Source: a virus. Taken from it: 64,000 bases of DNA. The notes under the pieces were generated by a model. It was not told the origin of the DNA. It saw nothing but the letters and a program-made list of their open reading frames with translations, and searched no databases. The stretch is from positions 1 through 64,000 of the IMG/VR virus record IMGVR_UViG_3300030503_000573; one strand, 5' to 3'. The position numbers and the translations under genes were made by a program. Below are positions 22,328-48,454 of the stretch, piece by piece; positions within the stretch are counted from its first letter, which is position 1, and each line of letters begins with the position of its first letter.

Positions 22328-22933
22328 TTAGACCGTATGGCGGGCTAGGACGGGAGCAGCGCGGTCTGCCTGCTCCGGAGATGAAGTCTTGCCAACTACC
22401 TTGCCGAGCAGCTTGAAGTCAAGGGACACGTCCACCTTGCCCCCCAGCATTTCAAGCCAAACCTTCACTTGGCCACTGCGGTCCAGATCGGCGACCGAGC
22501 TGATCTGCGCCGTCAGCCCGGCAAAGGGGCCCGCCGACCCCGAGAGCTTGACCGCGTCGCCGACCCTGAGGCGCAGGGTGGTAGACAGCTTGGTGGAGTC
22601 CCACGACCGTATGCGCCCATCCTCACCCGCGACCGCGCGCAGGGCGTCTATGACGGGGTCAGGCACGGCGAGGGGTACACGGTCTACCCCGCTGCGCAGC
22701 ACGTCCACGATGCCCCGTGCACAGAGTAACGGCGTGGGGTTGGGGGCGTCTGCGAACAGGTAGCGCGGGAAGATCGGCTCGTCACGGTCGACGAGGCGGA
22801 ACTGGTGGCGGCGGAACCGCTGCCGGCGCTTCACGCGCTCGTGTGGGAGAAAGACGGCCGCCCCGAGCCGCTCCAGCTCGTCACGGGCCAGGAACTCACG
22901 GCGCGGCTCGCACCACATTGCCCACCAGGTCAT
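22328..22933 (-). CDS. NusG/RfaH-family transcription antiterminator
   Basis: NGN motifs WWAMWCEPRRE, PIFPRYLF, VPDPVIDAL; KOW motif VGDAVKL..GPFAGL and LEMLGG. Confidence 0.88.
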   Translation of the reverse strand: MTWWAMWCEPRREFLARDELERLGAAVFLPHERVKRRQRFRRHQFRLVDRDEPIFPRYLFADAPNPTPLLCARGIVDVLRSGVDRVPLAVPDPVIDALRAVAGEDGRIRSWDSTKLSTTLRLRVGDAVKLSGSAGPFAGLTAQISSVADLDRSGQVKVWLEMLGGKVDVSLDFKLLGKVVGKTSSPEQADRAAPVLARHTV

Positions 22934-36234: not shown

Positions 36235-36440
36235 GCAAGTTCGGCGACGAGAGCGATACCTACGACCTGGAGTACCTCGGCCTCACCCGTGCAGGCAACG
36301 CCTACATGGTTGACGACGGCGACGGCAACACCGTCTTCCTGCCGACGAGCCGGGTTGAGCCGGTGGGCGCGCTCGTCGTCAACAAGACGTGCAAGTTCGA
36401 CATCCCCAACTGGCTCGCCGAGCGCGAGGGCCTATGTTAG
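36231..36440 (+). CDS. Hypothetical protein
   Basis: ATGA-coupled; VFLPTS...IPNWLAEREGL small conserved phage motif. Confidence 0.6.
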   Translation: MSKFGDESDTYDLEYLGLTRAGNAYMVDDGDGNTVFLPTSRVEPVGALVVNKTCKFDIPNWLAEREGLC

Positions 36441-36452
36441 CCAAAATACCAC

Positions 36453-36518
36453 TTGACTTACCCACCGGTGGTCACTAAGGGAGGGGGTGGGCGCGAGGCG
36501 TGCCCGCATCATAAGGAG
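36453..36518 (+). promoter_or_regulatory. Conserved sigma70-type promoter P1 + leader hairpin + RBS
   Basis: TTGACT-17-TAAGGG, hairpin 36487-36507, CATAAGGAG; repeated at 55190 and 58650. Confidence 0.8.
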
Positions 36519-36528
36519 GCCAGACCAG

Positions 36529-36858
36529 ATGACGAAGAGCCAGCCCCAGTTCGCCTTCACGGTGCGCCGGACCACCTATGAGTTCGAGGGTCGCTACGTC
36601 TCGACCAGCACTCAGGTCGTCTCCCGCGAATACTTCTGCTCGGCGGCTGGGGCCGCGTTCGCCTGCCGCCGCGCCGGTGACCCCGGCGACACGACCGACG
36701 GTGGCGTCTGTGGCGCGATTGAGAAGCTCCAGCCCGGCATGGTCTATGACTTCCAGCTCAATCAATGGGTTCCCGGCATGGAGTGGAAGCCCTGGTACGG
36801 AGAGGCGTGGGCGGCTCGCGAGCCGGTCGCCGATCCCTTTGACGACATGCCGTTCTGA
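36529..36858 (+). CDS. Hypothetical early protein
   Basis: First ORF after P1 with TAAGGAGG RBS. Confidence 0.65.
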   Translation: MTKSQPQFAFTVRRTTYEFEGRYVSTSTQVVSREYFCSAAGAAFACRRAGDPGDTTDGGVCGAIEKLQPGMVYDFQLNQWVPGMEWKPWYGEAWAAREPVADPFDDMPF

Positions 36859-36886
36859 AGCATCAATCAGCATAAGGAGACATCAG

Positions 36887-37450
36887 ATGACCCGCACCCG
36901 CCGCCCCGCTGGCTCCCGTGCCCACCCTGTCACCACCACCCTCGGCTCGGCCTTTGAAGATGGCCGCTCCGATGTCGAGGGCCTCTACGAGGAGATGAAC
37001 GACTGGGCCTCCAACATGGAGGGCAACAGCATGGAGCACCTGCCCAAGTACGACGAGGTCACCGAGGCCCGCGACGCGCTGGAGACAGCCAACGACACCC
37101 TCGGCGGCATCGAGCCGCCAGACGCCATCGCTGACCTGGAGGTCCACTTCACGACTGACACGCGCCAGAACGCCCAGAGCCGCTCGGGCCGTATGGGGAA
37201 TGTCCTGCAGGCCCTGGGCGCGGCCAAGGACGCCGCCGAGGCCTGGATGGAGGAAAACCCTGAGCTGGAGGTCAGCGAACCAGACGAGGAATTCATCGAC
37301 GGCAACGAACCCCTGGAGGAAGAAGAGAAGGTCACCCAGGAGCAGGTCGAAGAGCGCGAGGCTGCCCGCACCGAGGTCGAAGAATTCCTCAACGAGCTGG
37401 ACAGCGCCATCAGCGAGGCCGAGGGGGTCAGCTTCCCCGGCATGTACTAG
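36887..37450 (+). CDS. Highly acidic early protein
   Basis: CATAAGGAG RBS; D/E-rich helical sequence. Confidence 0.7.
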   Translation: MTRTRRPAGSRAHPVTTTLGSAFEDGRSDVEGLYEEMNDWASNMEGNSMEHLPKYDEVTEARDALETANDTLGGIEPPDAIADLEVHFTTDTRQNAQSRSGRMGNVLQALGAAKDAAEAWMEENPELEVSEPDEEFIDGNEPLEEEEKVTQEQVEEREAARTEVEEFLNELDSAISEAEGVSFPGMY

Positions 37451-37484
37451 CCTATCCCACCCACCAGCATAAGGAGACCACCTC

Positions 37485-38174
37485 ATGACCAACACCACCT
37501 ACACCACCAAGCGGGCGGCCATAGCCGGCGCGCGCCGCGCCCTCGCCAAGGCGGGCGTCGAGAACGCCCTGAGCCAGGTCCACTTCAACGTCCACCTGCG
37601 GGAGGACAGCGACGAGTGGTACTGGGCGGCGGTGGACCTGACGCCGGCTGAGCGGAAGGCCCAGGTGACCAAGCCCTCAGGCAAGTCCTTTCCCGACGCT
37701 GACCCTGGTTCGACCAGGGAGCTGGCCGATCAGAAGGCCGCCCGCCAGTCTCGCGCGGCCAAGCAGGCCATCGCCGAGACCACGGCCAGGACGCCGCCCA
37801 CCCCGCCGCCCACCCCGCCGGTCGCTCCGGCCGAGCGCTGGCGCAAGCCCAAGCGCGCCGAGCCGTCGAAGATCGCCTACCGGCCGCGCTCGGGCTCGCA
37901 GCAGCGGGCGGCCTACGAGCTGCTCACCAGCCCGGACTACCCCGAGGGCATCGAGGCCCAGACCTTCTGCGACCTCATGAACCCGTGGGTCAAGCCTGGC
38001 GCGACGCCGTGGACCCCCGCCAACACCTGGGGCTTTCTCAACTACCTGCTCGTCAGCCAGAAGGGCTACGGCCTGAGCTTCGACGGCACCCGGTTCCGCC
38101 TGCTGGTGCCGAAGGACGAGCGCGACCCGGTCGCGCGCAAGGCCGACCCGCTGCCGCCGATGAAGGCGAAGTGA
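37485..38174 (+). CDS. Hypothetical early protein
   Basis: CATAAGGAG RBS; 229 aa. Confidence 0.7.
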   Translation: MTNTTYTTKRAAIAGARRALAKAGVENALSQVHFNVHLREDSDEWYWAAVDLTPAERKAQVTKPSGKSFPDADPGSTRELADQKAARQSRAAKQAIAETTARTPPTPPPTPPVAPAERWRKPKRAEPSKIAYRPRSGSQQRAAYELLTSPDYPEGIEAQTFCDLMNPWVKPGATPWTPANTWGFLNYLLVSQKGYGLSFDGTRFRLLVPKDERDPVARKADPLPPMKAK

Positions 38175-38383
38175 TGCGCAAGCCCACCACCCACCAGAGC
38201 TCCGTCATCGAGCTGCTCCGGCTCGGGCATGTCACGCCCGAGCCGCACGCCCCCCGCGCGGCGGTGGCCCACTACGAGGCCAACCCGGCGGCGGCCGTGT
38301 GGGTGGTCGCCCGTACCCTCAGCGGTGCCAACCTCACCGAGATGTGGCGCGTCCACCCCGACGGCCGCGCGGAGCAGTTCTGA
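38174..38383 (+). CDS. Hypothetical protein
   Basis: TGATG-coupled at both ends. Confidence 0.55.
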   Translation: MRKPTTHQSSVIELLRLGHVTPEPHAPRAAVAHYEANPAAAVWVVARTLSGANLTEMWRVHPDGRAEQF

Positions 38384-39348
38384 TGAGCATCAGCATGAGA
38401 GGCTGGACCTACGGGGCCGAGCACGAGTTCGTGGACTGGCCACGGTCGAGGCCGCTCCCTGCGGGGTGCACCGCCCTGACGAATGAGTACACCATCGTCA
38501 ACTCGACCGGGGTGGCGACCGACCCGCACCACGACCCGGCCCGGCGCACCTACGCCTGGGGCCACGAGGTCAACACCCCGCCGACCGACGACATCGGGGG
38601 CCAGGTCGGCATCATGATGGAGCTGCTGGAGGCGCTGCCCGAGGCCCGCGTCAACTACCGCTCTGAGCTCAACATCCACATCCGGGTGCCAGGCCTGCGA
38701 GACGACCTCGCGGCGCTGAAGCGCCTCGCCGACTACAACGGCCGCCACCTGAGGACCGCCGTCGAGCTGGTCGACCCCATGAGCCCCCCGGTGCGCTCCC
38801 TGGGCATGACCGACGACGAGTGGGAGGGCGCCAAGCGCAACTACGTGGTGCGCCGCAACTTCCAGCACCGGGTGCTGCCGCCCGACCGCACGGCCCGCCA
38901 GCTGGCGGCTGCCACCACCACTGAGTTCTTCGAGGCCGAGGTGCCGAAGGCGAGGGGCAACGGCCGCCCGATGTGGCACGCCCAGCCCCGGTGCGCGGTA
39001 AACCTGCGGCAGCTGCTGCAGACCGACACGGTGGAGTTCCGCCACTGGGCGGGGACGCTGAACGCCGGCTTGTTCCAGAACGCTGGGCTCTGGTGCATGT
39101 TGTACCTGCGAGGAGCCCTCTTCGATCCTGATACTGCGCCAACAGCTCTGTGGAATGGAATGGCGAGCAGCTTGTTAGAATTCCCACCCCAGCACCCCTA
39201 CGAGCACTGGAAGGAGCGTCGTTTCCGCGCCACCACCCACGACGGCTCCAACCGCCGTGACGAGATTCTACGCAACATCGCGGCCATCGAGAGCGGCGAG
39301 TTCGACGACCTGCCCGAGTCGGTCGCACCTAGGAGGCTGCCGCTGTGA
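38383..39348 (+). CDS. Putative amidoligase (COOH-NH2 ligase, glutamine synthetase-like fold)
   Basis: TYGAEHE, HEVNTPP, LNIHIR, RCAVNL, TVEFRH motifs in canonical order. Confidence 0.75.
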   Translation: MSISMRGWTYGAEHEFVDWPRSRPLPAGCTALTNEYTIVNSTGVATDPHHDPARRTYAWGHEVNTPPTDDIGGQVGIMMELLEALPEARVNYRSELNIHIRVPGLRDDLAALKRLADYNGRHLRTAVELVDPMSPPVRSLGMTDDEWEGAKRNYVVRRNFQHRVLPPDRTARQLAAATTTEFFEAEVPKARGNGRPMWHAQPRCAVNLRQLLQTDTVEFRHWAGTLNAGLFQNAGLWCMLYLRGALFDPDTAPTALWNGMASSLLEFPPQHPYEHWKERRFRATTHDGSNRRDEILRNIAAIESGEFDDLPESVAPRRLPL

Positions 39349-40193
39349 CGCGCATCGACGTAGCCGTCATCGGCGGGGGCCTGTTCGGGCGCACCATCGC
39401 GGCCGAGATGTGGGCCCAGGGACGGGAGTGTCAGGTACTCGACGACGCGCGGCCCTGGAGGGGCTCGGCCCCGGCCGCCTGCCTGATGCGGCCAAGCTGG
39501 TTCTCCAAGATGGAGAGGGGCGAGTACGTCGCCTCGATGGACCGGCTGGACCGGCTGTTCGGGGTCAAGAAGGTCAGGTTCGAGACGCCCGCAGGGCCGG
39601 CCGACCTGGACTGGGTGGACCCAGCCGTGGTGATGCGGCCGGACGCCTGTGTCATACCGGCGACGGTCACCGACATCTGGCGCGGCGAGGGCTACTGGGC
39701 GCTCAGCGTCAACACAGGACAGCCGGTCCACGCCCGCTCGGTCGTCGTGGCCACCGGCGTTTGGGTGCCGGAGCTTGTCAGGACGCCCCACAACATCACC
39801 GCCCTCGGCGGGTGGGCCGTGACCTGGGCATGGCCCTACGAGCGCCAGCAGGGCCCGAGCCGCCTGGAGCCGTGGGCTCCCTACAAGCAGCTCATCGGCT
39901 TCCAGCGGGGGGCTTGGGAGTGGTGGGCCGGCGACGGCACGGCGCTCCTCCCGGGATCGCTCACGCCAGAACGGCGCGACGCCTCCGAGAACCGCCTCCT
40001 GGCCTTCGGCAAGCGCCTTGGCCTAGCGGGTGTCGCCAGCATCACGGGCGGCCTCCGGCCGAAGGTTCCCGGGCTGCGCGCGCCGGCCCTCGTCGAGGAG
40101 GTCGCGCCCGGCCTGTGGATCGCGACCGGCGGCGCAAAGAACGGAACCCTTGGCGCGGCCTGGGCCTCGCTCCAGCTGAAGGACAGGCTCTAG
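39345..40193 (+). CDS. FAD-dependent oxidoreductase (DAO/glycine oxidase-like)
   Basis: VAVIGGGLFG dinucleotide fold, VVVATGVW, GLRP, ATGGAKNG. Confidence 0.85.
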   Translation: MTRIDVAVIGGGLFGRTIAAEMWAQGRECQVLDDARPWRGSAPAACLMRPSWFSKMERGEYVASMDRLDRLFGVKKVRFETPAGPADLDWVDPAVVMRPDACVIPATVTDIWRGEGYWALSVNTGQPVHARSVVVATGVWVPELVRTPHNITALGGWAVTWAWPYERQQGPSRLEPWAPYKQLIGFQRGAWEWWAGDGTALLPGSLTPERRDASENRLLAFGKRLGLAGVASITGGLRPKVPGLRAPALVEEVAPGLWIATGGAKNGTLGAAWASLQLKDRL

Positions 40194-40559
40194 ATGCGCT
40201 TCGTGCTCCGCTCCAAGCTCCACAACGCCACGGTCACCGAGGCGAACCTGCTGTACGTGGGCTCGATCACCATCGACGAGCACCTCATGGAGGTCGTCGG
40301 CCTGTGGCCCGGCGAGCGCGTGCTGGTGGTCTCCAACACGAGCGGGGCCCGCCTGGAGACCTACGTCATCACCGGCGACCGCTACTCCGGGGCGATCTGC
40401 ATGAACGGGGCCGCCGCCCACCTCATCTCGGCCGGCGAGCAGGTCATCATCATGGGCTTCGAGCTGGCCGAGCGGCCCATCACACCGGCCGTGGCCCTGT
40501 GCACGCCTAATAACCAGGTAGCACGCATGCTAAGCGAAATCTCAGGAGAGTTCCTATGA
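40194..40559 (+). CDS. panD: Aspartate 1-decarboxylase (pyruvoyl-dependent)
   Basis: SKLH, YVG-SITID autocleavage site, GARLETYVI, NGAAAH all intact. Confidence 0.95.
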   Translation: MRFVLRSKLHNATVTEANLLYVGSITIDEHLMEVVGLWPGERVLVVSNTSGARLETYVITGDRYSGAICMNGAAAHLISAGEQVIIMGFELAERPITPAVALCTPNNQVARMLSEISGEFL

Positions 40560-40729
40560 TCCAAGCCCTCGTCATGGCAGTGATGCTGTGCGCGCTAGTG
40601 GTGGTCACCGCCAAGGTGCTGACCCTGCTGCTGCGCCTCGTGCTGGTGCTCGCCGGCATGGCGGTGCTGGCCGTGCTCGGGGCAGCCACATTCCTCATCA
40701 CGCTCGCCGCGTCTGTTGCGAGCGCCTAG
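40556..40729 (+). CDS. Small hydrophobic membrane protein (57 aa, not in ORF track)
   Basis: AGGAG RBS, ATGA overlap with panD; almost entirely hydrophobic. Confidence 0.6.
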   Translation: MIQALVMAVMLCALVVVTAKVLTLLLRLVLVLAGMAVLAVLGAATFLITLAASVASA

Positions 40730-40779
40730 AGACCCGCGCGCGGCGGCTTCCGCGCACAGCAAGAAGGAGGACTACGACT

Positions 40780-40938
40780 ATGGACAAGATCATGAGCTAC
40801 CTGGGCGACGAAGGCGGTGCCAGCGCCGCTGAGTACGCCTTGATCCTGGCGCTGATCGCCCTGGTGATCATCGTCAGCGTCACGACCCTCGGCACCAACA
40901 TCAACGGTGTCTTCTCGCACGCTGCCAAGTCTATCTGA
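40780..40938 (+). CDS. flp: Flp/Fap (Tad) type IV prepilin
   Basis: AAGGAGG RBS; 52 aa MDKIMSYLGDEGG-ASAAEYALILALIALVIIVSVTTLGTNINGVF with G-1, E+5, Y+6. Confidence 0.9.
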   Translation: MDKIMSYLGDEGGASAAEYALILALIALVIIVSVTTLGTNINGVFSHAAKSI

Positions 40939-40982
40939 CGCGGCGCGGCGGCCCGGGGTGGTGAGCCCCGGGCGACTACCTT

Positions 40983-41543
40983 GTGAATCATATGGAGTTC
41001 TCAGACGTGGCCAGGGCGATGTTCTACGACAGCTATCAGGACGAAGTGAGGGACTGGATGCTCCAGACCTTCCCGCCCGAGGTCTGCCAGGACCGGGTCG
41101 AACGCGCCGACCGCCTGCTGGAGGAGGTCTTCGAGCTGCTCCAGAGCGGAGGCTACGACCCGGCGCGGGTCGCAATGATCCGCGACTACGTCTGGGGCCG
41201 ACCGGTCGGCGAGCCGGCGCAGGAGGTGGGTGGTGTCGCTGTGACCCTCGCGGCCTACTGCTGGGTGCACGGCCTTGACTACGAGGCTGCTGCCAGGGCC
41301 GAGGTGGCCCGGGTGTGGACCATGATTGATGTCATCCGCAGGAAGCAGGCGGCCAAGCCCAAGGGGAGCCCGCTGCCGGTCGCGGTGGACCACCCGGCGG
41401 AGGCTCCTGTATCCAGAACAGCTGTCATGATATTTGGACAGCCTAAGCTGTACTATGAGGTCTACGAATGCGATCCTCGTGATGGCGCGATGTGGACTGA
41501 TGAGCGCGTCACGTCATGGTTTAGAGGCGAGCCGCTGCCGTGA
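40983..41543 (+). CDS. MazG-like NTP pyrophosphohydrolase
   Basis: RLLEEVFEL...QEVGGV all-alpha NTP-PPase-like pattern. Confidence 0.6.
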   Translation: MNHMEFSDVARAMFYDSYQDEVRDWMLQTFPPEVCQDRVERADRLLEEVFELLQSGGYDPARVAMIRDYVWGRPVGEPAQEVGGVAVTLAAYCWVHGLDYEAAARAEVARVWTMIDVIRRKQAAKPKGSPLPVAVDHPAEAPVSRTAVMIFGQPKLYYEVYECDPRDGAMWTDERVTSWFRGEPLP

Positions 41544-41935
41544 CCAGAACCGTCCCCCGCACCTCGCCCCCGCTCGACCTGGAGCTGGTCGCGCGCACCC
41601 TGCGCACCGCCACCTACCGGGCCTGGATGCTGAGCCTGACCAACAACCGCATGGCCGTGCGCTCCTACGAGGAGATGAAGGCCCCGGAGGTCGGGCAGAT
41701 GGTCGTCGAGCTGACGACCATCTGGGCGCGTGCGTTCGACCTCAAGGGCGTCGGGGAGCTGGTGCTCGTAGCCCAGGAGAGGATCGACCTCGGCGGTGAG
41801 CCCTGGGACGAGGTCTTCCAAGGCACCCCGTGCCCGACCGAGCCAGTCTACTACGTCAAGAACCTAGACGGCACCGTGACCCGCTGGACGAACTGCCAGC
41901 TGCTAGCCTGCCCAGCAGACCTGGGGCTAGTCTAG
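41540..41935 (+). CDS. Hypothetical protein
   Basis: GTGA-coupled 131 aa ORF. Confidence 0.6.
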   Translation: MTRTVPRTSPPLDLELVARTLRTATYRAWMLSLTNNRMAVRSYEEMKAPEVGQMVVELTTIWARAFDLKGVGELVLVAQERIDLGGEPWDEVFQGTPCPTEPVYYVKNLDGTVTRWTNCQLLACPADLGLV

Positions 41936-41940
41936 CACCC

Positions 41941-42261
41941 ATGACCCGCCCCATCCACTTCACCCCGGCCGACGTCGAGCGCTTCCTGAGCTTCGTCGTG
42001 CCCGCGCTTGACGGCTGCCACCACTGGGCAGGTGGCACGAGCTGCGGTGGCCACAACACGAGCGAATACGGCTCGTTCTGGGTGGACGGGCGCGGGGTGC
42101 GTGCCCACATCTTCGCCGCCGTCGCGCTGGGCGACGGGCACGCGCCGGGCAACCACGTCGACCACCTGTGCGTGACGTCGCTGTGCGTCAACCCAGCCCA
42201 CCTGGAGGACGTGCCCCCGCCGGTGAACCAGGCGCGGAAGCTGGAGCGGCGGAGGCGTTGA
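41941..42261 (+). CDS. HNH endonuclease
   Basis: GCHHWAG, YGSF, RAH, VDHLC...CVNPAHLE. Confidence 0.85.
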   Translation: MTRPIHFTPADVERFLSFVVPALDGCHHWAGGTSCGGHNTSEYGSFWVDGRGVRAHIFAAVALGDGHAPGNHVDHLCVTSLCVNPAHLEDVPPPVNQARKLERRRR

Positions 42262-42578
42262 TGGCCCACCCCTCCACCCTCATGGCCATCGCGGCTGGCG
42301 ACTACCGCCTGTTCTGGGTGCGGGTTGGCCCGACCTCGGCGCACACCGCGTGCTGCTGCCCGGCCCACGCCCTCGACAAGCTGGTGATGATCGGCGTGCT
42401 GCGCAGCGACGGCCGCCACCCGGCCGAGGGCGGCGAGATTGACGGCCGGTTCGTGCACTGGTTCTTGGCCCACCCAGAAGACCTCGACCGGCCGATGGGG
42501 CAGGGCGAGGTCGACTTCATCCAGGCCGCGTGCGAGAGCGCGGGGCTGAGCAGCATCGTGAGCGAGGCGAGGAACTAG
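42261..42578 (+). CDS. Hypothetical protein
   Basis: TGATG-coupled with GGAGG RBS. Confidence 0.55.
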   Translation: MAHPSTLMAIAAGDYRLFWVRVGPTSAHTACCCPAHALDKLVMIGVLRSDGRHPAEGGEIDGRFVHWFLAHPEDLDRPMGQGEVDFIQAACESAGLSSIVSEARN

Positions 42579-42580
42579 CA

Positions 42581-43477
42581 ATGATGGAAGTCGAAGACTT
42601 TGGCCGCCTGCTGATCGAGACCGGCGACCTCGACCCGGTGTACGTGGCGCTGAACCGCATGCGTTGGCCGGGCGGGTTCGCCCAGAGGGACCGCTGGCTG
42701 CAGGCGTACTGGTGCTGCTACCACGTGGGGGCCAGCTGCTGGCTCGCCGAGGTTCCGGACTTCTGGGGCTTCATGCGGCTGGCCGCCGTCAACGAGCGGC
42801 CGTCTCCCCTGGGCGGCCGGTGGCCCAGGGCGGCCGAGCGCCGCCACTGGCGGGGTCAGGCAGCCATAGACAGCGTCAACGACCTGGAGCGCCGCTACGG
42901 CAACCCGAACGCCCCTGACAAGAGCTGGTCCATGGTGCGGTACTGCGGCTTCGACGTCGAGCGGGAGGACATCCACCAGCCCAAGGTCCCCCTCGCGCTG
43001 ATTGAGGCCCGCGTCAAGGAGCACACCGGCTTCGGGCCCTGGATCGCCTTCAAGGTCGCCGACATGCTGGAGCGGTGCTGCGGGGTGCCGGTCGAGTTCG
43101 GCAACGCGCCGATGTTCTACGACAGCCCGAAGAAGGCCGCGCTGGCGCTGTTCAAGATGAGGGCCGGCCTGCCAGCCGCTGCCAAGGTCAAGGACGAGCT
43201 GGGGGCCATCTCCCAGGTCTCAGCCCACCTGCTGCGCACCATAGGCGACCTGGAGGCCCCCGGCGGGGGCCGGGCGTGCGGGCTGCCCGAGGTCGAGACC
43301 GTGCTGTGCAAGTGGGGCTCCCACCTCAGCGGCCACTATCCGCCGGGGAAGGACATCGCCGAGATTTATGAGGGGCTGTCCGAGTGGGAGACAGTCAGCC
43401 CGCTGGCCAGGAAGTTCCTCGCGGCGATGCCTGTTGACCAAGCAAAGCTGCTAGGTGCGGCCCCGGCTGCGGCCTAG
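42581..43477 (+). CDS. Amino acid:DNA transferase (aGPT-Pplase clade 2-like)
   Basis: TGDLDPVY, AYWCCYH, ERRHWRG, FGPWIAFKVADM, EVETVLCKW, YPPGKD motifs; beside kinases and TS homolog. Confidence 0.8.
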   Translation: MMEVEDFGRLLIETGDLDPVYVALNRMRWPGGFAQRDRWLQAYWCCYHVGASCWLAEVPDFWGFMRLAAVNERPSPLGGRWPRAAERRHWRGQAAIDSVNDLERRYGNPNAPDKSWSMVRYCGFDVEREDIHQPKVPLALIEARVKEHTGFGPWIAFKVADMLERCCGVPVEFGNAPMFYDSPKKAALALFKMRAGLPAAAKVKDELGAISQVSAHLLRTIGDLEAPGGGRACGLPEVETVLCKWGSHLSGHYPPGKDIAEIYEGLSEWETVSPLARKFLAAMPVDQAKLLGAAPAAA

Positions 43478-43503
43478 GTTAACCACTGACATAAGGAGCT
43501 CAC

Positions 43504-44142
43504 ATGGGCTGGGTACTCAACATACGCGGGACCAACGGGTCAGGGAAGAGCCACCTCGTGCGCTCGATGCTGCCGACGCCTGAGTATAGGCCAAATGTTA
43601 ACCTAGCCCGCTACGACTCACCGACGAAGCGCTACCCTGACCGCAAGAATGTAGTACCAGGGTATGTACTCAGTGAGCGAGACCTCGGACTGTTTGGTGT
43701 TGTTGGCTCCTACGAGACCCCGACAGGCGGCCTCGACGGAGTGCCAACATTTGCGGCTCAGATCGCGAGCTGTGCTCAGCTGCTCAACGACAACGAGTGC
43801 TGTACAGTCCTCGCCGAGGGCGTGCTGGCCTCCACGGTCTTCGGAGCCTGGGGCGCGTTCGCCGATGACCTCTCGCGGTTATCTCGACACCGTATGGCGT
43901 TCCTCTACATGAGCACGCCGGTTGACGTATGCCTGATGCGCATCACCGAGCGCCAGATTAAGGCCGGTCGCATCAGGGATATCAACGAGCAGCTGGTGCG
44001 CGACAAGGTGCGGGCCGTCGCCGCGACCCGCGAGCGGGCGCTGGCCGCCGGCCACGCGGTGTTCGACCTGCCGTTCGGGCTGGAGCGCGTGGCGCTGACT
44101 GGCATCATGCGCGGCGACATGGAGAGCTACCGTGGGAACTAG
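43504..44142 (+). CDS. 5-hmdU DNA kinase-like P-loop kinase 1
   Basis: NIRGTNGSGKS, VGSY...GGLD, LAEG. Confidence 0.8.
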   Translation: MGWVLNIRGTNGSGKSHLVRSMLPTPEYRPNVNLARYDSPTKRYPDRKNVVPGYVLSERDLGLFGVVGSYETPTGGLDGVPTFAAQIASCAQLLNDNECCTVLAEGVLASTVFGAWGAFADDLSRLSRHRMAFLYMSTPVDVCLMRITERQIKAGRIRDINEQLVRDKVRAVAATRERALAAGHAVFDLPFGLERVALTGIMRGDMESYRGN

Positions 44143-44761
44143 GCTGATAATCAACCTGCGTGGGCCCAACGGGGCCGGCAAGACGACGGTGGCCCGGGGG
44201 TTCCTGGAGCACAAGACTATCGACCTGGAGCCATACAGATACATCAACTCTGAGGGTCGAAGCAGAAGCTGGCCTATAGCCCAATGCAAGGCGCCAGGCC
44301 TCCAGCTGCCTATCTACGTGCTTGGACGCTATGATGTCCAGCAGGGCGGCTGTGACACGGAGAAGGACATGGACGCCATAGAGCGCTGCGTCCAGTGGGC
44401 CGTGGACAACCTCACCGATGGTCACATCTTCTTCGAGGGCTTCGTGGTCTCCAAGAGCGGCGGCCGGTGGCTGGAGTTCGCCGGGCGCAACGAGCGGGCT
44501 GGGAAGGGTCGCTACGTCTGGGCCTTCCTGAGGCCCAACCTCAACGAGCTGGAGGCACGCATCAAGGGCCGCAATGGCGGCAAGGAGGTCAAGCTTCCAC
44601 TCCTTGACAACACGATGCGCACAGTTGACCTCATTCGCAACAAGGCAAAGGCCCTCGTCACCGACCGCCGGTTCCTGGTGGACCTGGACTGGCAGCTCAG
44701 CGCGCCCATGGTTACCGAGCAGCTGATCCTACGCTTACAGCAGCTGGAGGCCGTCCGATGA
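44132..44761 (+). CDS. 5-hmdU DNA kinase-like P-loop kinase 2
   Basis: NLRGPNGAGKT, LGRY...GGCD, FFEG. Confidence 0.8.
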   Translation: MGTRLIINLRGPNGAGKTTVARGFLEHKTIDLEPYRYINSEGRSRSWPIAQCKAPGLQLPIYVLGRYDVQQGGCDTEKDMDAIERCVQWAVDNLTDGHIFFEGFVVSKSGGRWLEFAGRNERAGKGRYVWAFLRPNLNELEARIKGRNGGKEVKLPLLDNTMRTVDLIRNKAKALVTDRRFLVDLDWQLSAPMVTEQLILRLQQLEAVR

Positions 44762-45384
44762 CTACCCGAGTCATCGTCAACATCAGGGGTGCCAACGCCA
44801 GCGGCAAGACGACGCTGATGCGCCGCGTGATTGGGTCTGCGCCATACGTAGACCTAGGCCAGTTTCCAGACGCCCAGGGGAAGATGGGCTTCGTCCAAGG
44901 CCACCAGTTCTCGCTGGAGGGGTTCGAGCTGCCCTTCCTGGTCATCGGCCGGTACGATGCGTCCAAGTACTCGGGGTGCGACAAGATCAAGAGCGCTGAC
45001 CAGATCGAGGGGGTGTTGCGCTGGGCCATAGACGGCGGCTTCGCCGGCCACGTCCTCTTCGAGGGCTTCCGGGTCTCCAAGAGCTGGGCCCGCTTCGCCG
45101 CCGTGCGCAACTGGTGCGTGAGCAACCATCATGCCAGCTGGGTGTGGGCCTTCCTGCGCGCCGAGCCCGAGCTGATCTTTGAGCGCTCGGCCGCCCGGCG
45201 CGAGGCCGACGCGAGGCCCATTGACAAGGAGGAGCTCGCGGCAGTGTGCCGGGTGATGGCCTCCACCTGGCGCAAGGCCAAGGTGGCGATGCCACGAGAC
45301 TGCCTGGACCTGGACGCCTCGCAGCCGACCGAGGTGCTGTACGCGCAGCTGCTCGGGCGCATCAAGATGCTGGAGTCGGCGTGA
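44758..45384 (+). CDS. 5-hmdU DNA kinase-like P-loop kinase 3
   Basis: NIRGANASGKT, IGRY...SGCD, LFEG. Confidence 0.8.
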   Translation: MTTRVIVNIRGANASGKTTLMRRVIGSAPYVDLGQFPDAQGKMGFVQGHQFSLEGFELPFLVIGRYDASKYSGCDKIKSADQIEGVLRWAIDGGFAGHVLFEGFRVSKSWARFAAVRNWCVSNHHASWVWAFLRAEPELIFERSAARREADARPIDKEELAAVCRVMASTWRKAKVAMPRDCLDLDASQPTEVLYAQLLGRIKMLESA

Positions 45385-46373
45385 TGGACGTCGGCCCGCT
45401 GGTCGCCTGGGTGAATGAGCGCGAGGCGGTGCGGCTTAGGAAGGCTATCATTGCTGCTGGCGTTGACAGCTGGGGCCTAGAAGCCGGCTCCCTCACTCGT
45501 GATGTCTGGGGCGAGCATCCCAGAGACTACTGGCAGCTGGGTCACCTCACCGACGACCCCATCCTTCAGCAGTTCAAGTTCTGCAACGTCCGCCGCGAAG
45601 ACGACCGGGTGACTGTCTGGGTTCGCGAGCACATCAGGGAGCCGTATGCCGACCAGCAGCACCTGTGGCTCATGCTGGCCATCGCGAGGACGATCAACTG
45701 GCCCCCGGCGCTGCTGGAGCTGATCAGGGGCGGAGCCGAGGGCGTGTCCTCGTTCCCCAACATGCAGGACTTCGATCCGCGCTGCATGGCCCAGGTGCTG
45801 GAGGCGCGGCGGGCGCGTGGCGAGAAGGTCGAGACCGGCGCGTACATGATCAGGGCGGAGAGCCGGAAGGACAAGCCCTGGTACAGCTGGTCGAAGCAGC
45901 GGTATATCGCAGAGATCGTGATTGGCCATCTCTGGTACATGCGGGCCAGCTGGAAGCATGACTTTGAAAAGAAGAAGCTGACTACGCTGGAGCGCACCTG
46001 GGAAATTTTCCAGGAATATGACGGCTGGGGCCCATTCATGGCCTTCCAGGTCATCGTCGACCTCGCACACACCCGCTACCTGCGAGACGCGCCCGACCGC
46101 TCTAGCTGGGCCGCGCTCGGGCCCGGCTCGCGCCGGGGGCTGAACCGGCTGTACGGCCGGCCGGTGACAACTGGGCTGACGCAGGCCCAGGGTCTGGAGG
46201 AGATGCGAGAGGTCCAGGCGGCGGTGAACGCGCCGGGCGTGCTGGCGCCGTGGGTCGAGAAGATCGCGCTGAGCGACATACAGAACTGCTTGTGCGAGAC
46301 GGATAAATACCTCAGGGTAAGGAACGGCGAGGGTCGGCCGAGGGCCCTCTACAAGCCATGGAGTGGGTGGTGA
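45384..46373 (+). CDS. aGPT-Pplase clade 1-like DNA modification protein
   Basis: ERE, TDDPILQQFKFCNVRREDDRVT, GPFMAFQ...D, GPGSRRGL, IQNCLCETDKY. Confidence 0.85.
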   Translation: MDVGPLVAWVNEREAVRLRKAIIAAGVDSWGLEAGSLTRDVWGEHPRDYWQLGHLTDDPILQQFKFCNVRREDDRVTVWVREHIREPYADQQHLWLMLAIARTINWPPALLELIRGGAEGVSSFPNMQDFDPRCMAQVLEARRARGEKVETGAYMIRAESRKDKPWYSWSKQRYIAEIVIGHLWYMRASWKHDFEKKKLTTLERTWEIFQEYDGWGPFMAFQVIVDLAHTRYLRDAPDRSSWAALGPGSRRGLNRLYGRPVTTGLTQAQGLEEMREVQAAVNAPGVLAPWVEKIALSDIQNCLCETDKYLRVRNGEGRPRALYKPWSGW

Positions 46374-46597
46374 GCATGATCAATCGGATCAACCAGCTTA
46401 TGGTGCGAACCCGATGCTTTGCTGGCCTCCACCCTCGGGTAATCTCTGGTCGAGGGATGTGGGGCGACGCTGGCACCTGCCTGGTATGCGGAGCCGACGG
46501 CTATGGCCTCAAGGGCCTTCACAACACAGACCTCGCCGATGCAAGCGAAGATGACCGAGAGCGCCTGAGGGTGCTGGACGAGCAGAGGACGGCCTGA
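46370..46597 (+). CDS. Hypothetical Cys/His small protein
   Basis: CFAGLH...CLVCG; coupled to neighbours. Confidence 0.5.
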   Translation: MSMINRINQLMVRTRCFAGLHPRVISGRGMWGDAGTCLVCGADGYGLKGLHNTDLADASEDDRERLRVLDEQRTA

Positions 46598-47685
46598 TGC
46601 ACACCATCCACGCCCGCAACGTCAACGACGCCCTACACGCCGGCCTGATGCTGGTCCACAGCCACGGCATCCCGGAGACGAGCCGCAATGGTCCGGTCCT
46701 CCGCGTGCCCGAGCCGGTGGCCACCGTGTACGCCCGGCCGTGCGAGCGCGTGCTGATCCAGCCGTGGCGCGACGCCAACCCGTTCTTCCACCTCGTCGAG
46801 GCCTTCTGGATGCTCGCCGGGCGCGACGACCTGCGGCAGCTGACGCCCTACGTGTCCCGCATGAGGGAGTTCTCCGACGACGGCGGGGTGACGCAGCCCG
46901 GGGCGTACGGGAAGCGGTGGCGCGATCACGTCAAGAGCCCTTTCCTGGGCGGCATCGACCAGCTCAGCTGGGTAGCCGGGAGGCTTAGAGAGGACCCCAG
47001 CGACCGGCGCTGCGTCATTCAGATGTGGGACGCCAGCGTGGACATCCACAAAGCGTCCATCGGTGGCAACGACGCCCCGTGCAACCTCACGGCCACGCCC
47101 TACGTCGCGGCCGGCGCGCTCCACCTCGCGGTGTTCTGCCGCTCCAATGACATCATCTGGGGCGCATACGGCGCCAACGCGGTGCACTTCTCGGTGCTGC
47201 TGGAGTACCTGGCGGCGCGGGTTGGGGTGCCGGTCGGGACATACACGCAGGTGAGCATCAACTACCATGCCTACCTCAGCACCTTCCCCAAGGTCATGCC
47301 GGTCGAGGCGGCGCAGCCGTACAGCGTGAGCGGATTTGACGCCCTTCAACCCATACCTATGTTTTCAGAATGGTTGGTCGGCGGCGAAGATCGGGAATGC
47401 GAGCGCATCTTCCAGGAGGACCTCAGGGTCTTCTTCGAGGAGGGCCCCTTCGCCTACGCCACCGCCGGGCGCATTCCCTTCATGCGCCGGGTGCTGGTGC
47501 CTATGTGCCTGGCCCACCAGCACTGGCGCACGAAGAAGGGCGAGGACCGCTACCTCGGCGCGCTGGAGATTCTGCGCAGCTGCGCCGCGCCGGACTGGCG
47601 CCGGGCCGCCGAGGAGTGGGTTGGCCGCCGGTACGACAGGTGGAAGCTCGCCGCAGACGACGGAGCCCACGATGCTGAGGGATAG
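46597..47685 (+). CDS. Thymidylate synthase homolog, probable dUMP hydroxymethylase
   Basis: SRNG, RDANPFFH, PCN catalytic Cys, RSNDIIWG...NAVHFS (Asn = dUMP specificity), NYHAY, C-terminal DWRRAAEEW; context. Confidence 0.85.
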   Translation: MHTIHARNVNDALHAGLMLVHSHGIPETSRNGPVLRVPEPVATVYARPCERVLIQPWRDANPFFHLVEAFWMLAGRDDLRQLTPYVSRMREFSDDGGVTQPGAYGKRWRDHVKSPFLGGIDQLSWVAGRLREDPSDRRCVIQMWDASVDIHKASIGGNDAPCNLTATPYVAAGALHLAVFCRSNDIIWGAYGANAVHFSVLLEYLAARVGVPVGTYTQVSINYHAYLSTFPKVMPVEAAQPYSVSGFDALQPIPMFSEWLVGGEDRECERIFQEDLRVFFEEGPFAYATAGRIPFMRRVLVPMCLAHQHWRTKKGEDRYLGALEILRSCAAPDWRRAAEEWVGRRYDRWKLAADDGAHDAEG

Positions 47686-47854: not shown

Positions 47855-48454
47855 ATGCCCAAGCTCTTTGACCGCGTCAGGCTCGCCCGCGAGGGGGCGG
47901 CCGTCGAGCGCGCCCACCAGCACCCCCACCTGCAGCGCTACTCGGTCGGGCACCACTCGCTCGATGTGGTCACGCTGGTGGTGCTGTGCTGGAAGCACGA
48001 CCACGGCGGCGAGCTCCCCCGGGCCGAGCTGCTCGTGGCAGCGGCCTTTCACGACGTTGCCGAGCGCGTCACCGGCGACCTGCCAAGTCCCATCAAGGAC
48101 CGCTGCCGCGATGCCCTGGGCGAGATCGAGAAGGAGGTGGACCGCTACCTCGGGGTGGACGTCGGGCTGCGGGAGGACGAGCAGTGGTACCTCAAGAGCT
48201 GCGACAAGCTGGAGCTGTACCTGTGGGCCCACGAGGAGGCCAGCCGGGGCAATTGCCGCTTCCTGGGCTGGTGCCGGGTGTACGAGCAGAACTGGCAGTA
48301 TGAGCCGCCGCCTGAGTCCGTCAAGCGCATCGTCGAGGCTGTCGACCACGCGGGCCACATACCTGTTCTGCCGGGCGACCCGACCGACATGATCAGGCTC
48401 GGGCTCGCCAACATGGCCGCCGAGCAGCGCTCGGGAGTGCGCACCGATGGATGA
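47855..48454 (+). CDS. HD-domain 5'-deoxynucleotidase (YfbR-like)
   Basis: YSVGHHS, FHDVAE..TGDLPSPIK, CDKLE. Confidence 0.85.
   Translation: MPKLFDRVRLAREGAAVERAHQHPHLQRYSVGHHSLDVVTLVVLCWKHDHGGELPRAELLVAAAFHDVAERVTGDLPSPIKDRCRDALGEIEKEVDRYLGVDVGLREDEQWYLKSCDKLELYLWAHEEASRGNCRFLGWCRVYEQNWQYEPPPESVKRIVEAVDHAGHIPVLPGDPTDMIRLGLANMAAEQRSGVRTDG

Follow-up and report, generated by a model that had tools for sequence, protein, structure and literature searches.

A Phage Aspartate Decarboxylase Gene Beside Thymine-Decorating Genes Suggests Beta-Alanine as a Building Block of a New Modified DNA Base

Introduction

The gp46-gp49 pathway of phage PaMx11 yields 5-acetylaminomethyl-dU (PMC8989533; structures in PMC11472151). 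Its transferase and that of phage M6 are the two characterized glycine:DNA transferases (PMC8989533, PMC11472151), and Table 1 of PMC8989533 lists glycine, serine, and putrescine among the donors used within the family. The same table gives the PaMx11 gene order, which includes the acetyltransferase gp48. Phage SH-Ab 15599 raises host 1,3-diaminopropane synthesis to feed its thymine modification (PMC13458397). This precedent suggests that modifications of this kind are limited by how much donor is available.

Amidoligases are among the commonest uncharacterized enzymes of phage thymidine-hypermodification clusters. They were noted in clusters from viral metagenomes, and the text leaves their function unassigned (PMC8989533). 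We found in the literature neither a later functional assignment of phage amidoligases nor a characterized member of the subfamily considered here.

We analyzed a window of 64,000 nucleotides, the whole stretch examined for genes, from a virus record of 73,083 bases with a CheckV completeness of 100. The phage comes from peat soil, and its G+C content is 68%. Among its thymine-decorating genes lies panD, a gene for aspartate 1-decarboxylase, which suggests that beta-alanine is a building block of a new modified base. We found no literature linking aspartate decarboxylase or PanD to phage DNA hypermodification and none joining beta-alanine with 5-hmdU in phage; the terms “aspartate,” “pyruvoyl,” and “PanD” are absent from the main text of PMC8989533.

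Results

Gene content and layout of the locus

A sequence-only reading of the window had placed panD inside a DNA-modification operon, and the annotation agrees with it on two counts. The kinase and transferase genes of a hypermodification set are present (PF18748 twice, PF18723, and PF18724, with the motifs EVETVLC and FGPW..K), and six ORFs between 37485 and 40729 overlap or abut, with the junctions GTGATG, TGATG, GTGA, TAG followed by ATG, and ATGA. The features are as follows.

37485..38174, plus strand: ORF of 229 aa that starts the overlapping run; GC3 0.94; no Pfam, PHROG, or NCBIfam match
38174..38383, plus strand: ORF of 69 aa whose start and stop overlap the neighboring genes; no family match
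38383..39348, plus strand: predicted GS/YbdK-fold carboxylate-amine ligase (Amidoligase_2-like), 321 aa; ATG at 38383, longer ORF from GTG at 38299
39345..40193, plus strand: homolog of the FAD-dependent N-alpha-glycinylthymidine oxidase/lyase (PaMx11 gp47-like), 282 aa; PF01266
40194..40559, plus strand: panD, pyruvoyl-dependent aspartate 1-decarboxylase proenzyme; PF02261, TIGR00223, and aligned hallmark residues
40556..40729, plus strand: hydrophobic ORF of 57 aa whose ATG overlaps the panD stop (ATGA); no Pfam or PHROG match
42530..43477, plus strand: amino acid:DNA transferase (ADDT/aGPT-Pplase2), glycine type by homology; PF18724, E 8.5e-16
43504-44142, 44132-44761, and 44758-45384, plus strand: three tandem P-loop kinase paralogs; PF18748 for the first two
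45246..46373, plus strand: 5-hmdU DNA kinase helical-domain protein; PF18723, E 2.1e-40; phrog_2396
46597..47685, plus strand: thymidylate-synthase-like enzyme; PF00303, E 3.3e-18; phrog_5131, E 4.6e-102
47855..48454, plus strand: HD-domain 5'-deoxynucleotidase-like protein; PF12917 (YfbR-like), E 6.3e-13

The amidoligase gene, the gp47 homolog, and panD follow one another within the run. The GTG start of the FAD-enzyme gene overlaps the amidoligase stop (GTGA), and the panD ATG comes directly after the TAG of the FAD-enzyme gene, with no gap. Downstream of panD are the genes for the glycine-type transferase, the 5-hmdU DNA kinases, and the thymidylate-synthase-like enzyme. With these junctions, panD is probably translationally coupled to the tailoring enzymes and coexpressed with them. 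Scans of positions 36400 to 43600, which are uninformative for a phage of 68% G+C, returned no terminator-like sites (fewer than in shuffles) and a single promoter-like site, on the minus strand.

The junction between the FAD-enzyme gene and panD is bridged without a difference by contigs from three of four peat-metagenome runs, and an identical panD sequence was recovered in several such runs, on contigs that are short and of low depth. A 94-base skip inside panD in run X5 lies on a 450-letter contig that carries other differences, and we read it as another organism's panD. The region from 38000 to 46000 had no megablast match among 50,697 phage records. We also considered the 186-aa ORF at 40983-41543 as an NTP pyrophosphatase and dropped the assignment, as it matched nothing in Pfam, NCBIfam, or the PDB sequences and only PHROGs of unknown function.

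The FAD enzyme and the transferase have characterized relatives. The FAD enzyme matches PF01266 (DAO; E 1.4e-12), shows 41.1% identity with the FAD oxidoreductase of PaMx11 across 99% of its length, and aligns over residues 3-281 with PDB entry 8z2o, a “flavin-dependent lyase” (E 1.4e-57). It keeps the equivalents of gp47 W51, F52, Y180, Q182, R210, R242, and K268 and has K in place of Y244; substrate- and DNA-contact roles of gp47 residues are described in PMC11472151. The transferase is 45.2% identical to M6 ORF051 and 42.4% identical to its PaMx11 homolog, and it matches PDB entries 25qc (E 7.6e-75) and 8z2m, a “glycinyltransferase” (E 5.2e-60). Its motifs GDLDPVY, GFGPWIAFK, and EVETVLC are conserved in the alignment to 25qc; by our own mapping, they would hold the equivalents of PaMx11 D24, W146, K150, E243, T244, and C247, whose roles in glycine binding and catalysis are described in PMC11472151.

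The first two kinase paralogs match the 5-hmdU DNA kinase family PF18748 with E values of 1.2e-7 and 7.9e-8, and the third has only a subthreshold match to AAA_33. The thymidylate-synthase-like protein is presumed from its context to be a dUMP hydroxymethylase, which its sequence alone did not distinguish here from ThyA. Pfam searches of the cluster found no PLP enzyme.

The decarboxylase

The panD gene is an uninterrupted ORF at 40194-40559 on the plus strand, encoding 121 aa. Its product matches the Pfam family PF02261 (Asp_decarbox; E 1.5e-37; 128.5 bits against a cutoff of 25) over profile positions 3-114 of 115, and it scores 117.7 bits with the NCBIfam equivalog TIGR00223 (panD), above the cutoff of 106. 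Two solved PanDs served as references for alignment, 1ppy from E. coli (E 3.9e-16) and 2c45 from M. tuberculosis (E 1.8e-24). Aligned to these, the phage protein carries K8, H10, Y21, G23-S24, R53, T56, Y57, and N71-G-A-A-A-H76, where phage residue n corresponds to E. coli residue n+1 across the catalytic region. We take the functional residues of the E. coli enzyme to be K9, H11, R54, T57, Y58, and N72, and Gly-Ser is presumably the self-cleavage site that yields the pyruvoyl group. The hallmark columns are 100% conserved in 118 close homologs, except for A75 (98%), and the phage protein has the consensus residue at every one. The presence of all the hallmark residues had been claimed in the sequence-only reading. 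Six other positions depart from residues conserved in at least 80% of the homologs (F3, L9, L20, Y64, C103, and T104); the residue at Y64 is G in 95% of them.

Cellular PanDs, mostly alphaproteobacterial, are 70-78% identical to the phage protein. This identity and the invariant catalytic columns make activity on free aspartate likely: the phage PanD is most likely canonical and retains the conversion of free L-aspartate to beta-alanine. The earlier proposal of this substrate and product is thus favored by Arg53, the catalytic columns, the identity to cellular enzymes, and the TIGR00223 score.

The closest sequences come from Bradyrhizobium, Caulobacteraceae, Asticcacaulis, and Rhodoblastus. 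In a tree of PanDs, the nearest neighbors are all Alphaproteobacteria and include no other viral PanDs, consistent with a putative recent capture from an alphaproteobacterial-type host. At 0.32, the terminal branch of panD is roughly double the median of 0.15, so the gene is not brand new, and its GC3 of 0.91 is phage-like.

The record holds one copy of panD, alone among the pantothenate genes panB, panC, and panD. HMM searches across all 73,083 bases found no panB (PF02548) and no panC (PF02569), with the two profiles matching 11 and 9 of 14 control genomes, respectively. The absence of both genes, first remarked for the window, extends to the entire 73-kb record; the last 9 kb, beyond the window, were covered by the three pan HMMs only.

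The amidoligase

The amidoligase itself has no Pfam match at an E value of ≤0.01. A sequence profile search of the PDB gave nothing meaningful (best E 0.1), and its fold was used instead. The AF2 model has a pLDDT of 88.9, and its top Foldseek matches are all GS, GCL, PafA, or YbdK proteins (E 2e-3 to 5e-2; top 10, 2.3e-3 to 9.5e-3). With VIA, the model gave Z 10.5 against 1tt4 (rmsd 4.6; 217 aligned), 10.3 against YbdK (1r8g), and 9.9 against GS and PafA, Z values of about 10 standing only modestly clear of background. The modeled structure points to an ATP-dependent carboxylate-amine ligase fold. Among the homologs (n = 168), PF12224 was found in 25 of the 120 listed; three scanned relatives match PF12224, and one homolog, P0180, additionally carries the 5-hmdU kinase family PF18748.

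Relatives align from about residue 26-37 of the ORF starting at GTG 38299, and the TGATG junction is at 38381-38385; residues are numbered here from that GTG. The core residues E41, E43, E90, H127, R231, E246, R248, and H249 are present in the phage protein and in 222-225 of 225 relatives and are probably of the metal/ATP type. Variation is concentrated elsewhere. Eight covarying sites, at positions 89, 123, 125, 181, 184, 188, 189, and 298, read GNHRRSHF in 90 of 105 distinct locus-derived relatives; in the phage protein they read HENNVFQQ, deviating at all eight, whereas every other one of the 225 relatives deviates at no more than six. By our own tally of Pfam assignments, radical SAM proteins occur at 8 of 9 loci with variant signatures versus 3 of 96 with the canonical one. 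Variant signatures thus track different accessory enzymes, and the eight sites behave like specificity determinants, although they could instead bind the DNA-borne group. The phage locus has the canonical transferase and FAD-enzyme partner set, yet it has its own amidoligase signature and PanD, both unique.

In a stricter leave-one-out comparison, the phage amidoligase only shared first place for deviance within the locus set, departing at 4 of 33 conserved columns; the control proteins departed at none (transferase, 0/30; thymidylate-synthase-like enzyme, 0/54; PolA, 0/46). In the set of 226 sequences, it ranked second in deviance at a 95% threshold and sixth at 90%. The same comparison led us to abandon the idea that it is unique at each deviant residue: other sublineages vary at those positions, and the combination alone is unique.

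Related loci and other viral PanDs

Of 80 viral amidoligase loci, 23 carry the transferase and 20 the FAD enzyme; for 80 metagenome loci, the counts are 29 and 28. At the relatives L007, L008, and phage Simon, the order is transferase, FAD enzyme, amidoligase, kinase, thymidylate-synthase-like gene, HD protein, and PolA, an arrangement in which the amidoligase occupies the slot of the PaMx11 acetyltransferase gp48. PanD was detected by tblastn (E ≤ 1e-4) at none of the 80 viral or 80 metagenome loci, sets that share some contigs and include many short ones. When 161 loci (these 160 and phage Simon) were translated in all six frames, a PanD HMM matched none of them, and PF02261 was absent from three of three whole related records. 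The link between PanD and hypermodification is a single case. If the relatives use beta-alanine, PanD is dispensable there; if they use another acid, the assignment of beta-alanine rests on PanD alone.

Viral PanDs occur elsewhere, in Rhodococcus phage Jace (gp87), Achromobacter phage 2-1, and at least 55 IMG/VR viral contigs, with 32-55% identity to the phage PanD. The sequence-only reading had tied its case to phage panD homologs associating with modification loci, and this association was largely missing: hypermodification genes were found at none of the 55 other IMG/VR PanD loci and in none of five PanD-bearing records, the latter with an HMM that also matched no control genome. No transferase, kinase, or amidoligase gene was near any of the other viral PanDs examined. 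Those PanDs typically lie in nucleotide-metabolism or early regions, beside genes for RNR, clamp loader, or DNA ligase, so a PanD amid DNA-metabolism genes is not unusual. Neither panB nor panC lies near them, apart from two proviruses with panB-panC-panD, where the set resembles a host flank.

Discussion

We propose that PanD supplies beta-alanine and that the amidoligase couples it to 5-aminomethyl-dU in DNA, a reading that we hold tentatively and at slightly less than even chances. PanD would be functional and self-processing, making beta-alanine from free L-aspartate by its pyruvoyl group. By homology to characterized enzymes, 5-hmdU would enter the DNA and be phosphorylated by the 5-hmdU DNA kinases, the transferase would add glycine to give N-alpha-glycinylthymidine, and the gp47-like flavin lyase would cut this back to 5-aminomethyl-dU. 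The amidoligase, with ATP, would then acylate the amine with PanD-made beta-alanine. The fuller claim, that an amidoligase pocket retuned for beta-alanine and a PanD-made donor give 5-(beta-alanylaminomethyl)-2'-deoxyuridine, a so far undescribed derivative of thymidine, is possible but somewhat more doubtful. Characterized GS-fold ligases mostly activate glutamate, and to our knowledge beta-alanine has no precedent as an acyl donor in this fold. Beta-alanine is a scarce metabolite, not known to be produced for anything but pantothenate. On this physiology, PanD would be needed because each genome has about 23,000 thymines and a burst of them would take very large amounts of it. The sequence-only reading had favored substrate supply for DNA chemistry over a boost to CoA. 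That view draws on the gene order of one genome, the unique amidoligase pattern, and chemical plausibility; the operon coupling and the amidoligase pattern strengthen it, and the absence of PanD from other amidoligase loci (0/80, 0/80, and 0/3) weakens it.

That absence would be expected if PanD were a generic auxiliary metabolic gene, making beta-alanine during infection to sustain or boost host pantothenate and CoA or to feed another sink, its location being a chance result of gene insertion into the early, DNA-metabolism region. We hold this less likely than the preferred reading, yet a serious rival. The phage PanD is indistinguishable from cellular PanDs at its functional sites; Jace, Achromobacter phage 2-1, and the IMG/VR contigs (at least 55) carry PanD without hypermodification genes, usually amid nucleotide-metabolism or replication genes; and a nearby HNH endonuclease gene and the rearranged gene order suggest a recombination-prone region. 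However, panB and panC, which would consume the product, are missing from the record. In E. coli, the CoA level is set at pantothenate kinase, so added beta-alanine alone should have little effect. The apparent translational coupling of panD to the tailoring enzymes goes beyond mere proximity, and the partner amidoligase has a unique pattern at its specificity sites.

The beta-alanine might instead be linked to 5-phosphomethyl-dU by the transferase, in place of glycine, with the amidoligase and flavin enzyme acting on the adduct. Beta-alanine, like glycine, has a primary amine and a carboxylate; the family takes various primary amines, and an Acinetobacter phage enzyme is described as having a broad donor range in vitro (PMC13458397). 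We nevertheless judge this improbable. The transferase agrees with 30 PanD-less relatives at every one of 30 conserved columns, and its motifs with the equivalents of D24, W146, and K150, which contact glycine in PaMx11 gp46 (PMC11472151), are conserved. The flavin enzyme retains R242 and other substrate-site residues of the N-alpha-glycinylthymidine lyase, and oxidative cleavage of the adduct would throw the beta-alanine away.

Quite improbable, in our estimate, is that panD is a passenger, taken up from a host not long ago and without a selected role. Its high identity to host-type genes and its restriction to this phage lineage among the loci surveyed would fit. Against this, the frame is intact with all functional residues present and a phage-like GC3 (0.91), its start and stop are closely tied to the flanking genes of the operon, the same sequence came from several peat metagenome runs, and the terminal branch (0.32 versus 0.15) is too long for a brand-new arrival.

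Very improbable is a role for PanD on DNA itself, decarboxylating aspartate attached by the amidoligase or transferase in place of the PLP decarboxylases of M6 and ViI, which act on DNA-borne amino acids (PMC8989533). The cluster does lack a PLP enzyme, and an aspartate joined by its beta-carboxyl and then alpha-decarboxylated would leave the identical beta-alanyl product; yet this option, which the sequence-only reading had itself held less likely, is disfavored by 70-78% identity to housekeeping PanDs, with catalytic and substrate columns including Arg53 unchanged and none of the six off-consensus residues in a hallmark column. In PanD structures, the partner of this arginine is the free beta-carboxylate, so an aspartate linked through that group would be unable to bind as the free one does, and the active sites are small pockets at tetramer subunit interfaces, unlike those of base-flipping DNA enzymes.

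The preferred pathway, with PanD as donor supplier and the amidoligase as coupling enzyme, would, if true, provide the first phage-encoded precursor-supply enzyme among 5-hmdU hypermodification pathways and the first substrate assignment in a widespread phage amidoligase family. A PanD in an amidoligase operon offers an uncommon clue from nature to what such a ligase attaches to DNA, and it narrows the candidate acid and amine substrates to a short list. Confirmation would enlarge the set of natural DNA bases by one and would show that phages can recruit a housekeeping enzyme from the host to supply DNA chemistry; if the pathway is refuted, this panD joins the scattered phage PanDs without an explained role.

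Compared with known systems, the phage PanD shares with the cellular enzymes (2c45 and 1ppy) the Pfam and equivalog family, length class, Gly-Ser site, and catalytic and substrate residues. It differs in being virus encoded, without panB or panC, within a DNA-hypermodification operon, and in a few odd residues at conserved positions, notably Y64. Other phage PanDs (Jace gp87, Achromobacter phage 2-1, and the 55 IMG/VR loci) likewise belong to PF02261 but lack hypermodification genes. Conversely, the amidoligase clusters of L007, L008, phage Simon (PQ683277), and others have an amidoligase of the same family (32-51% identity) and share the transferase, FAD lyase, kinases, and thymidylate-synthase-like gene, with PanD in none.

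The kinase, glycine-type transferase (42%), and FAD lyase (41%) of PaMx11 gp46-gp49 are homologous to the set found here, and the predicted intermediate, 5-aminomethyl-dU, is the same. PaMx11 then uses a GNAT acetyltransferase, whereas this phage has a predicted ATP-dependent GS-fold amidoligase, an added PanD, and a rearranged gene order; the end product is an acetyl amide in PaMx11 and would be an aminoacyl amide here. The alpha-dapT pathway of SH-Ab 15599 is likewise described as a 5-hmdU-derived thymine modification with a bulk small-molecule donor (PMC13458397). Its donor is a diamine added by a transferase, whereas the donor here would be an acyl group added by a ligase; and where SH-Ab 15599 reprograms host donor genes, the donor-making enzyme of this phage would be carried by the phage itself.

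An intact panD coupled to a flavin lyase gene

An earlier, sequence-only reading had described an intact phage aspartate 1-decarboxylase (PanD) with all of its hallmark residues and without other pan genes, and this was borne out in full. The IMG/VR virus record comprises 73,083 bases and is rated 100% complete; the window is its first 64 kb, and no panB or panC is found in the whole record. The window carries terminase, portal, family-A polymerase, primase, and helicase genes. It also encodes a NusG-like protein (22328-22933, - strand; PF02357, E 2.3e-7) that adjoins the small terminase gene, and a 416-aa protein with an N-terminal NUDIX domain (13562-14815, - strand).

Features of the panD region, in order
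229-aa ORF without assigned function
69-aa ORF without assigned function
38383 (ATG), 321-aa putative amidoligase
282-aa FAD enzyme (lyase)
40194-40559, + strand, PanD, uninterrupted, 121 residues (Pfam Asp_decarbox, E 1.5e-37, nearly the whole profile)
57-aa hydrophobic ORF
Downstream: amino-acid:DNA transferase (PF18724); three tandem P-loop kinase paralogs (43504-45384), two of the three matching the 5-hmdU DNA kinase family; kinase helical-domain protein; thymidylate-synthase (TS)-like gene; HD nucleotidase; polymerase

PanD scored above the NCBI panD equivalog cutoff (117.7 bits versus 106). Alignment to solved PanDs identified K8, H10, Y21, G23-S24, R53, T56, Y57, and N71-GAAAH76; in the catalytic region, our numbering is that of the Escherichia coli protein minus one. 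G23-S24 is presumably the cleavage pair, and we take the other hallmark residues to have their usual roles. Among the 118 closest homologs, the hallmark columns are invariant except for A75 (98%), and the phage protein has the consensus residue at each. It departs at six positions where at least 80% of the homologs agree (F3, L9, L20, Y64, C103, and T104); residue 64 (R-G-S-G loop after the T-Y pair) is Tyr versus Gly in 95% of the homologs. That all six lie outside the hallmark columns argues that the enzyme would still act on free aspartate. Judged by its sequence, the gene is an ordinary panD.

The six ORFs from the 229-aa ORF to the hydrophobic ORF abut or overlap across 37485-40729. The coupling of panD to the lyase gene is tighter than mere proximity: the lyase TAG directly abuts the panD ATG with zero spacer, and the next ORF overlaps the panD stop. 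Contigs from three of the four peat-metagenome runs compared cross the lyase/PanD junction without difference; these runs are not mutually independent, and the source sample may be among them. Between panD and the transferase gene lies a 52-aa Flp/Fap-type pilin gene (40780-40938, + strand; PF04964, E 3.4e-12), preceded by a strong Shine-Dalgarno-like AAGGAGG; a Flp prepilin is unusual in a phage.

A predicted route to 5-aminomethyl-dU

The FAD enzyme is 41% identical to gp47 of Pseudomonas phage PaMx11, a flavin-dependent lyase shown in PMC8989533 to convert N-alpha-glycinylthymidine to 5-aminomethyl-dU. Compared with solved gp47, it retains W51, F52, Y180, Q182, R210, R242, and K268 and has K in place of Y244 (residue roles from PMC11472151). 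The transferase resembles two characterized glycine:DNA transferases, M6 gp51 (45% identity) and PaMx11 gp46 (42%), and conserves the motifs with the Asp/Trp/Lys that contact glycine and with the catalytic Glu/Thr/Cys. The homologies of these two enzymes make a route to 5-aminomethyl-dU well founded, in which kinase, glycine transferase, and flavin lyase would generate the 5-aminomethyl group. Three P-loop kinase paralogs precede the kinase helical-domain gene in the window, versus one in relatives.

A putative carboxylate-amine ligase with its own residue signature

The 321-aa protein itself has no match in Pfam. It has 168 homologs, and among the 120 listed, PF12224 (Amidoligase_2) is found in 25. 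One homolog, the 525-aa metagenome protein P0180 (41% identity over 92% of the window protein), also contains the 5-hmdU kinase family PF18748. An AlphaFold model built from 40 input sequences was confident (pLDDT 88.9). Its Foldseek matches were weak (E 2e-3 to 5e-2) and all to glutamine synthetase (GS), glutamate-cysteine ligase, YbdK, or PafA/Dop; a second structural aligner gave Z 10.5 (rmsd 4.6, 217 residues) to a YbdK-like protein and approximately 9.9 to GS and PafA. This uniformity of fold points to an ATP-dependent carboxylate-amine ligase, which by homology would be the GS-fold ligase of such hypermodification pathways.

The comparison set for this amidoligase comprised 225 distinct relatives (120 from databases, the others translated from loci), and residues are numbered from the longer ORF start, GTG 38299. 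The residues E41, E43, E90, H127, R231, E246, R248, and H249, presumed to form the metal/ATP core, are kept in the window and in 222 to 225 of the 225. Sites 89, 123, 125, 181, 184, 188, 189, and 298 read G-N-H-R-R-S-H-F in the large majority versus H-E-N-N-V-F-Q-Q in the window, which alone departs at all eight (others, at most six). In a leave-one-out control of 226 amidoligases, the window ranked second at a 95% threshold and sixth at 90%, and in the locus-only set it was tied for most deviant (4/33 columns); other sublineages vary at the same sites, which tempers this deviation. The same test gave 0/30 for the window transferase, 0/54 for the TS-like protein, and 0/46 for the polymerase.

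Variant signatures track cluster content. In our own tally of signature rows, with partners assigned by Pfam, radical-SAM genes accompany 8/9 variant-signature loci versus 3/96 canonical ones, and PLP enzymes accompany 5/9 versus 3/96. The variable sites therefore behave like specificity determinants, and the signature seems usable as a specificity code for this family. The window combines the canonical partner set (transferase and FAD lyase) with a signature of its own, and of these loci it alone has PanD. In the model, a single helix carries four variable sites, and three are on the strand that includes invariant H127 (odd positions 123-127); the eight could face the active site.

Variant residues at 123, 125, 181, 184, 188, and 298 (loci L026, L031, L032, L204, L229, and others) are found where the cluster also encodes radical-SAM/SPASM and PLP (PALP) enzymes and, in one case, an SDR. 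Clusters with the canonical signature have the FAD lyase and, in 50/90 loci, a low-molecular-weight phosphatase.

PanD in other viruses

We surveyed amidoligase loci from the best 80 of 125 confirmed viral relatives and the best 80 of 140 metagenome relatives, using available DNA up to 10 kb on each side; many contigs are short, and the two sets share some. No PanD was detected by tblastn (E ≤ 1e-4) at any of the 80 viral or 80 metagenome loci, a PanD HMM had no match in six-frame translations of 161 amidoligase loci including phage Simon, and PF02261 was absent from three whole related records. Conversely, none of 55 viral PanD loci from a profile-guided scan contained the transferase, kinases, FAD lyase, or amidoligase; PF18724 was absent from five PanD-bearing records, and this model also had no match in control genomes. 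Of 15 representative PanD loci (89 neighboring proteins scanned with Pfam), two proviruses have a host-like panB-panC-panD, and the remaining PanDs have genes such as those for ribonucleotide reductase, clamp loader, DNA ligase, and PhoH as neighbors. PanD is thus a scattered phage gene, usually within DNA-metabolism regions, and among the loci surveyed only this phage joins it to a hypermodification operon; Figure 2 and further supplements of PMC8989533, outside the survey, might list relevant clusters.

The sequence-only reading had inferred that PanD serves substrate supply for DNA chemistry. The absence of a PanD-modification association elsewhere counts against this on that reading's own terms. 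The scatter and habitual location of phage PanDs fit a generic auxiliary gene for beta-alanine and CoA. We consider this somewhat less likely than supply for DNA chemistry, and it is the strongest alternative; it accounts for neither the coupling of panD nor the amidoligase pattern.

Several viral PanDs have other neighbors. In Rhodococcus phage Jace (L001, 6347-9112), the neighbors of PanD gp87 are a ParB_N protein, gp86 (a fusion of P-loop and GNAT domains), and gp88, which matches the N-terminal part of CoA-transferase family III. gp86 is 38% identical (E ~1e-62) to a protein approximately 1.2 kb from PanD in T4-like IMG/VR contigs (loci compared: L001, L260, L261, L274, L275, and L278), and PanD and P-loop-GNAT may be a conserved pair. 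PanZ/PanM, the maturation factor of E. coli PanD, likewise belongs to the GNAT proteins. By visual alignment, PanD-like proteins at L262, L263, L281, and L282 have H-W-E-T-Y versus the R-x-x-T-Y of PanD, with His for the substrate arginine; their genes adjoin radical-SAM and PP-loop (QueC/Asn-synthase-like) genes, and they may be pyruvoyl decarboxylases with another substrate. PanD homologs at L283-L294 (173 to 197 aa) have a C-terminal extension of 60 to 80 residues; at L283-L285, a beta-eliminating lyase (PF01212, E 2e-74) is encoded immediately upstream, and at L284 a Dam-type methyltransferase gene is nearby. At 14 viral loci (L254-L258, L264-L268, and L270-L273), PanD lies within approximately 2 to 3 kb of an AMP-binding (adenylate-forming) enzyme 62 to 100% identical among loci, and here, too, PanD is paired with an enzyme that activates carboxylates; PhoH and peptidase M15 are near the pair at L257 and L267, which were Pfam scanned.

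Origin and possible role of PanD

The closest proteins to the window PanD are cellular PanDs (70 to 78% identity), with named sources Bradyrhizobium, Afipia, Rhodoblastus, Caulobacterales, Hyphomonadaceae, Sphingomonas, and Collimonas. Among one-genome-per-species contigs, the best matches were Bradyrhizobium (75%), Caulobacteraceae (71%), Asticcacaulis (69 to 70%, full length), and Beijerinckiaceae. In a tree of 108 rows and 120 columns, which has no supported resolution, the five nearest rows are all Alphaproteobacteria, and other viral PanDs fall elsewhere on long branches. The identities and this placement together suggest that the phage acquired a housekeeping enzyme independently and fairly recently.

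Use of beta-alanine as donor by the transferase itself is improbable, as the transferase and lyase are unremarkable and of the glycine type. Still a little less probable is a passenger gene, given the intact frame, the coupling, and the recurrence in several samples. Decarboxylation of DNA-bound aspartate, which the sequence-only reading had ranked lower, is very improbable, as the protein is nearly identical to housekeeping PanDs and retains Arg53.

We tentatively propose, as a possibility somewhat short of even, that beta-alanine from PanD is joined by the amidoligase to 5-aminomethyl-dU. The ligase would acylate the 5-aminomethyl amine, by positional analogy with the PaMx11 acetyltransferase gp48, and with beta-alanine as acyl donor the product would be 5-(beta-alanylaminomethyl)-dU. 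Beta-alanine is normally made only for pantothenate. The window contains 20,491 A+T in 64,000 bp, or, scaled to the whole record, approximately 23,000 thymines per genome on both strands, which would impose a large demand for beta-alanine. That donor supply matters for thymine modification has a precedent in phage SH-Ab 15599, which raises 1,3-diaminopropane synthesis in its host as a supply for thymine modification (PMC13458397). A functional link between PanD and hypermodification, favored by the coupling of panD, the patterned divergence of the amidoligase, and this precedent, is plausible but rests on one lineage; it would be informative about a large uncharacterized enzyme family. PMC8989533 reports such amidoligases as co-associated with clusters, function unassigned, and we found no assignment in later literature. 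Among relatives, two IMG/VR contigs and phage Simon arrange these genes as transferase, FAD lyase, amidoligase, kinase, kinase helical protein, TS-like gene, HD protein, and polymerase. The amidoligase of these relatives thus occupies the slot that in PaMx11, whose pathway leads to 5-acetylaminomethyl-dU, is held by the acetyltransferase gp48.
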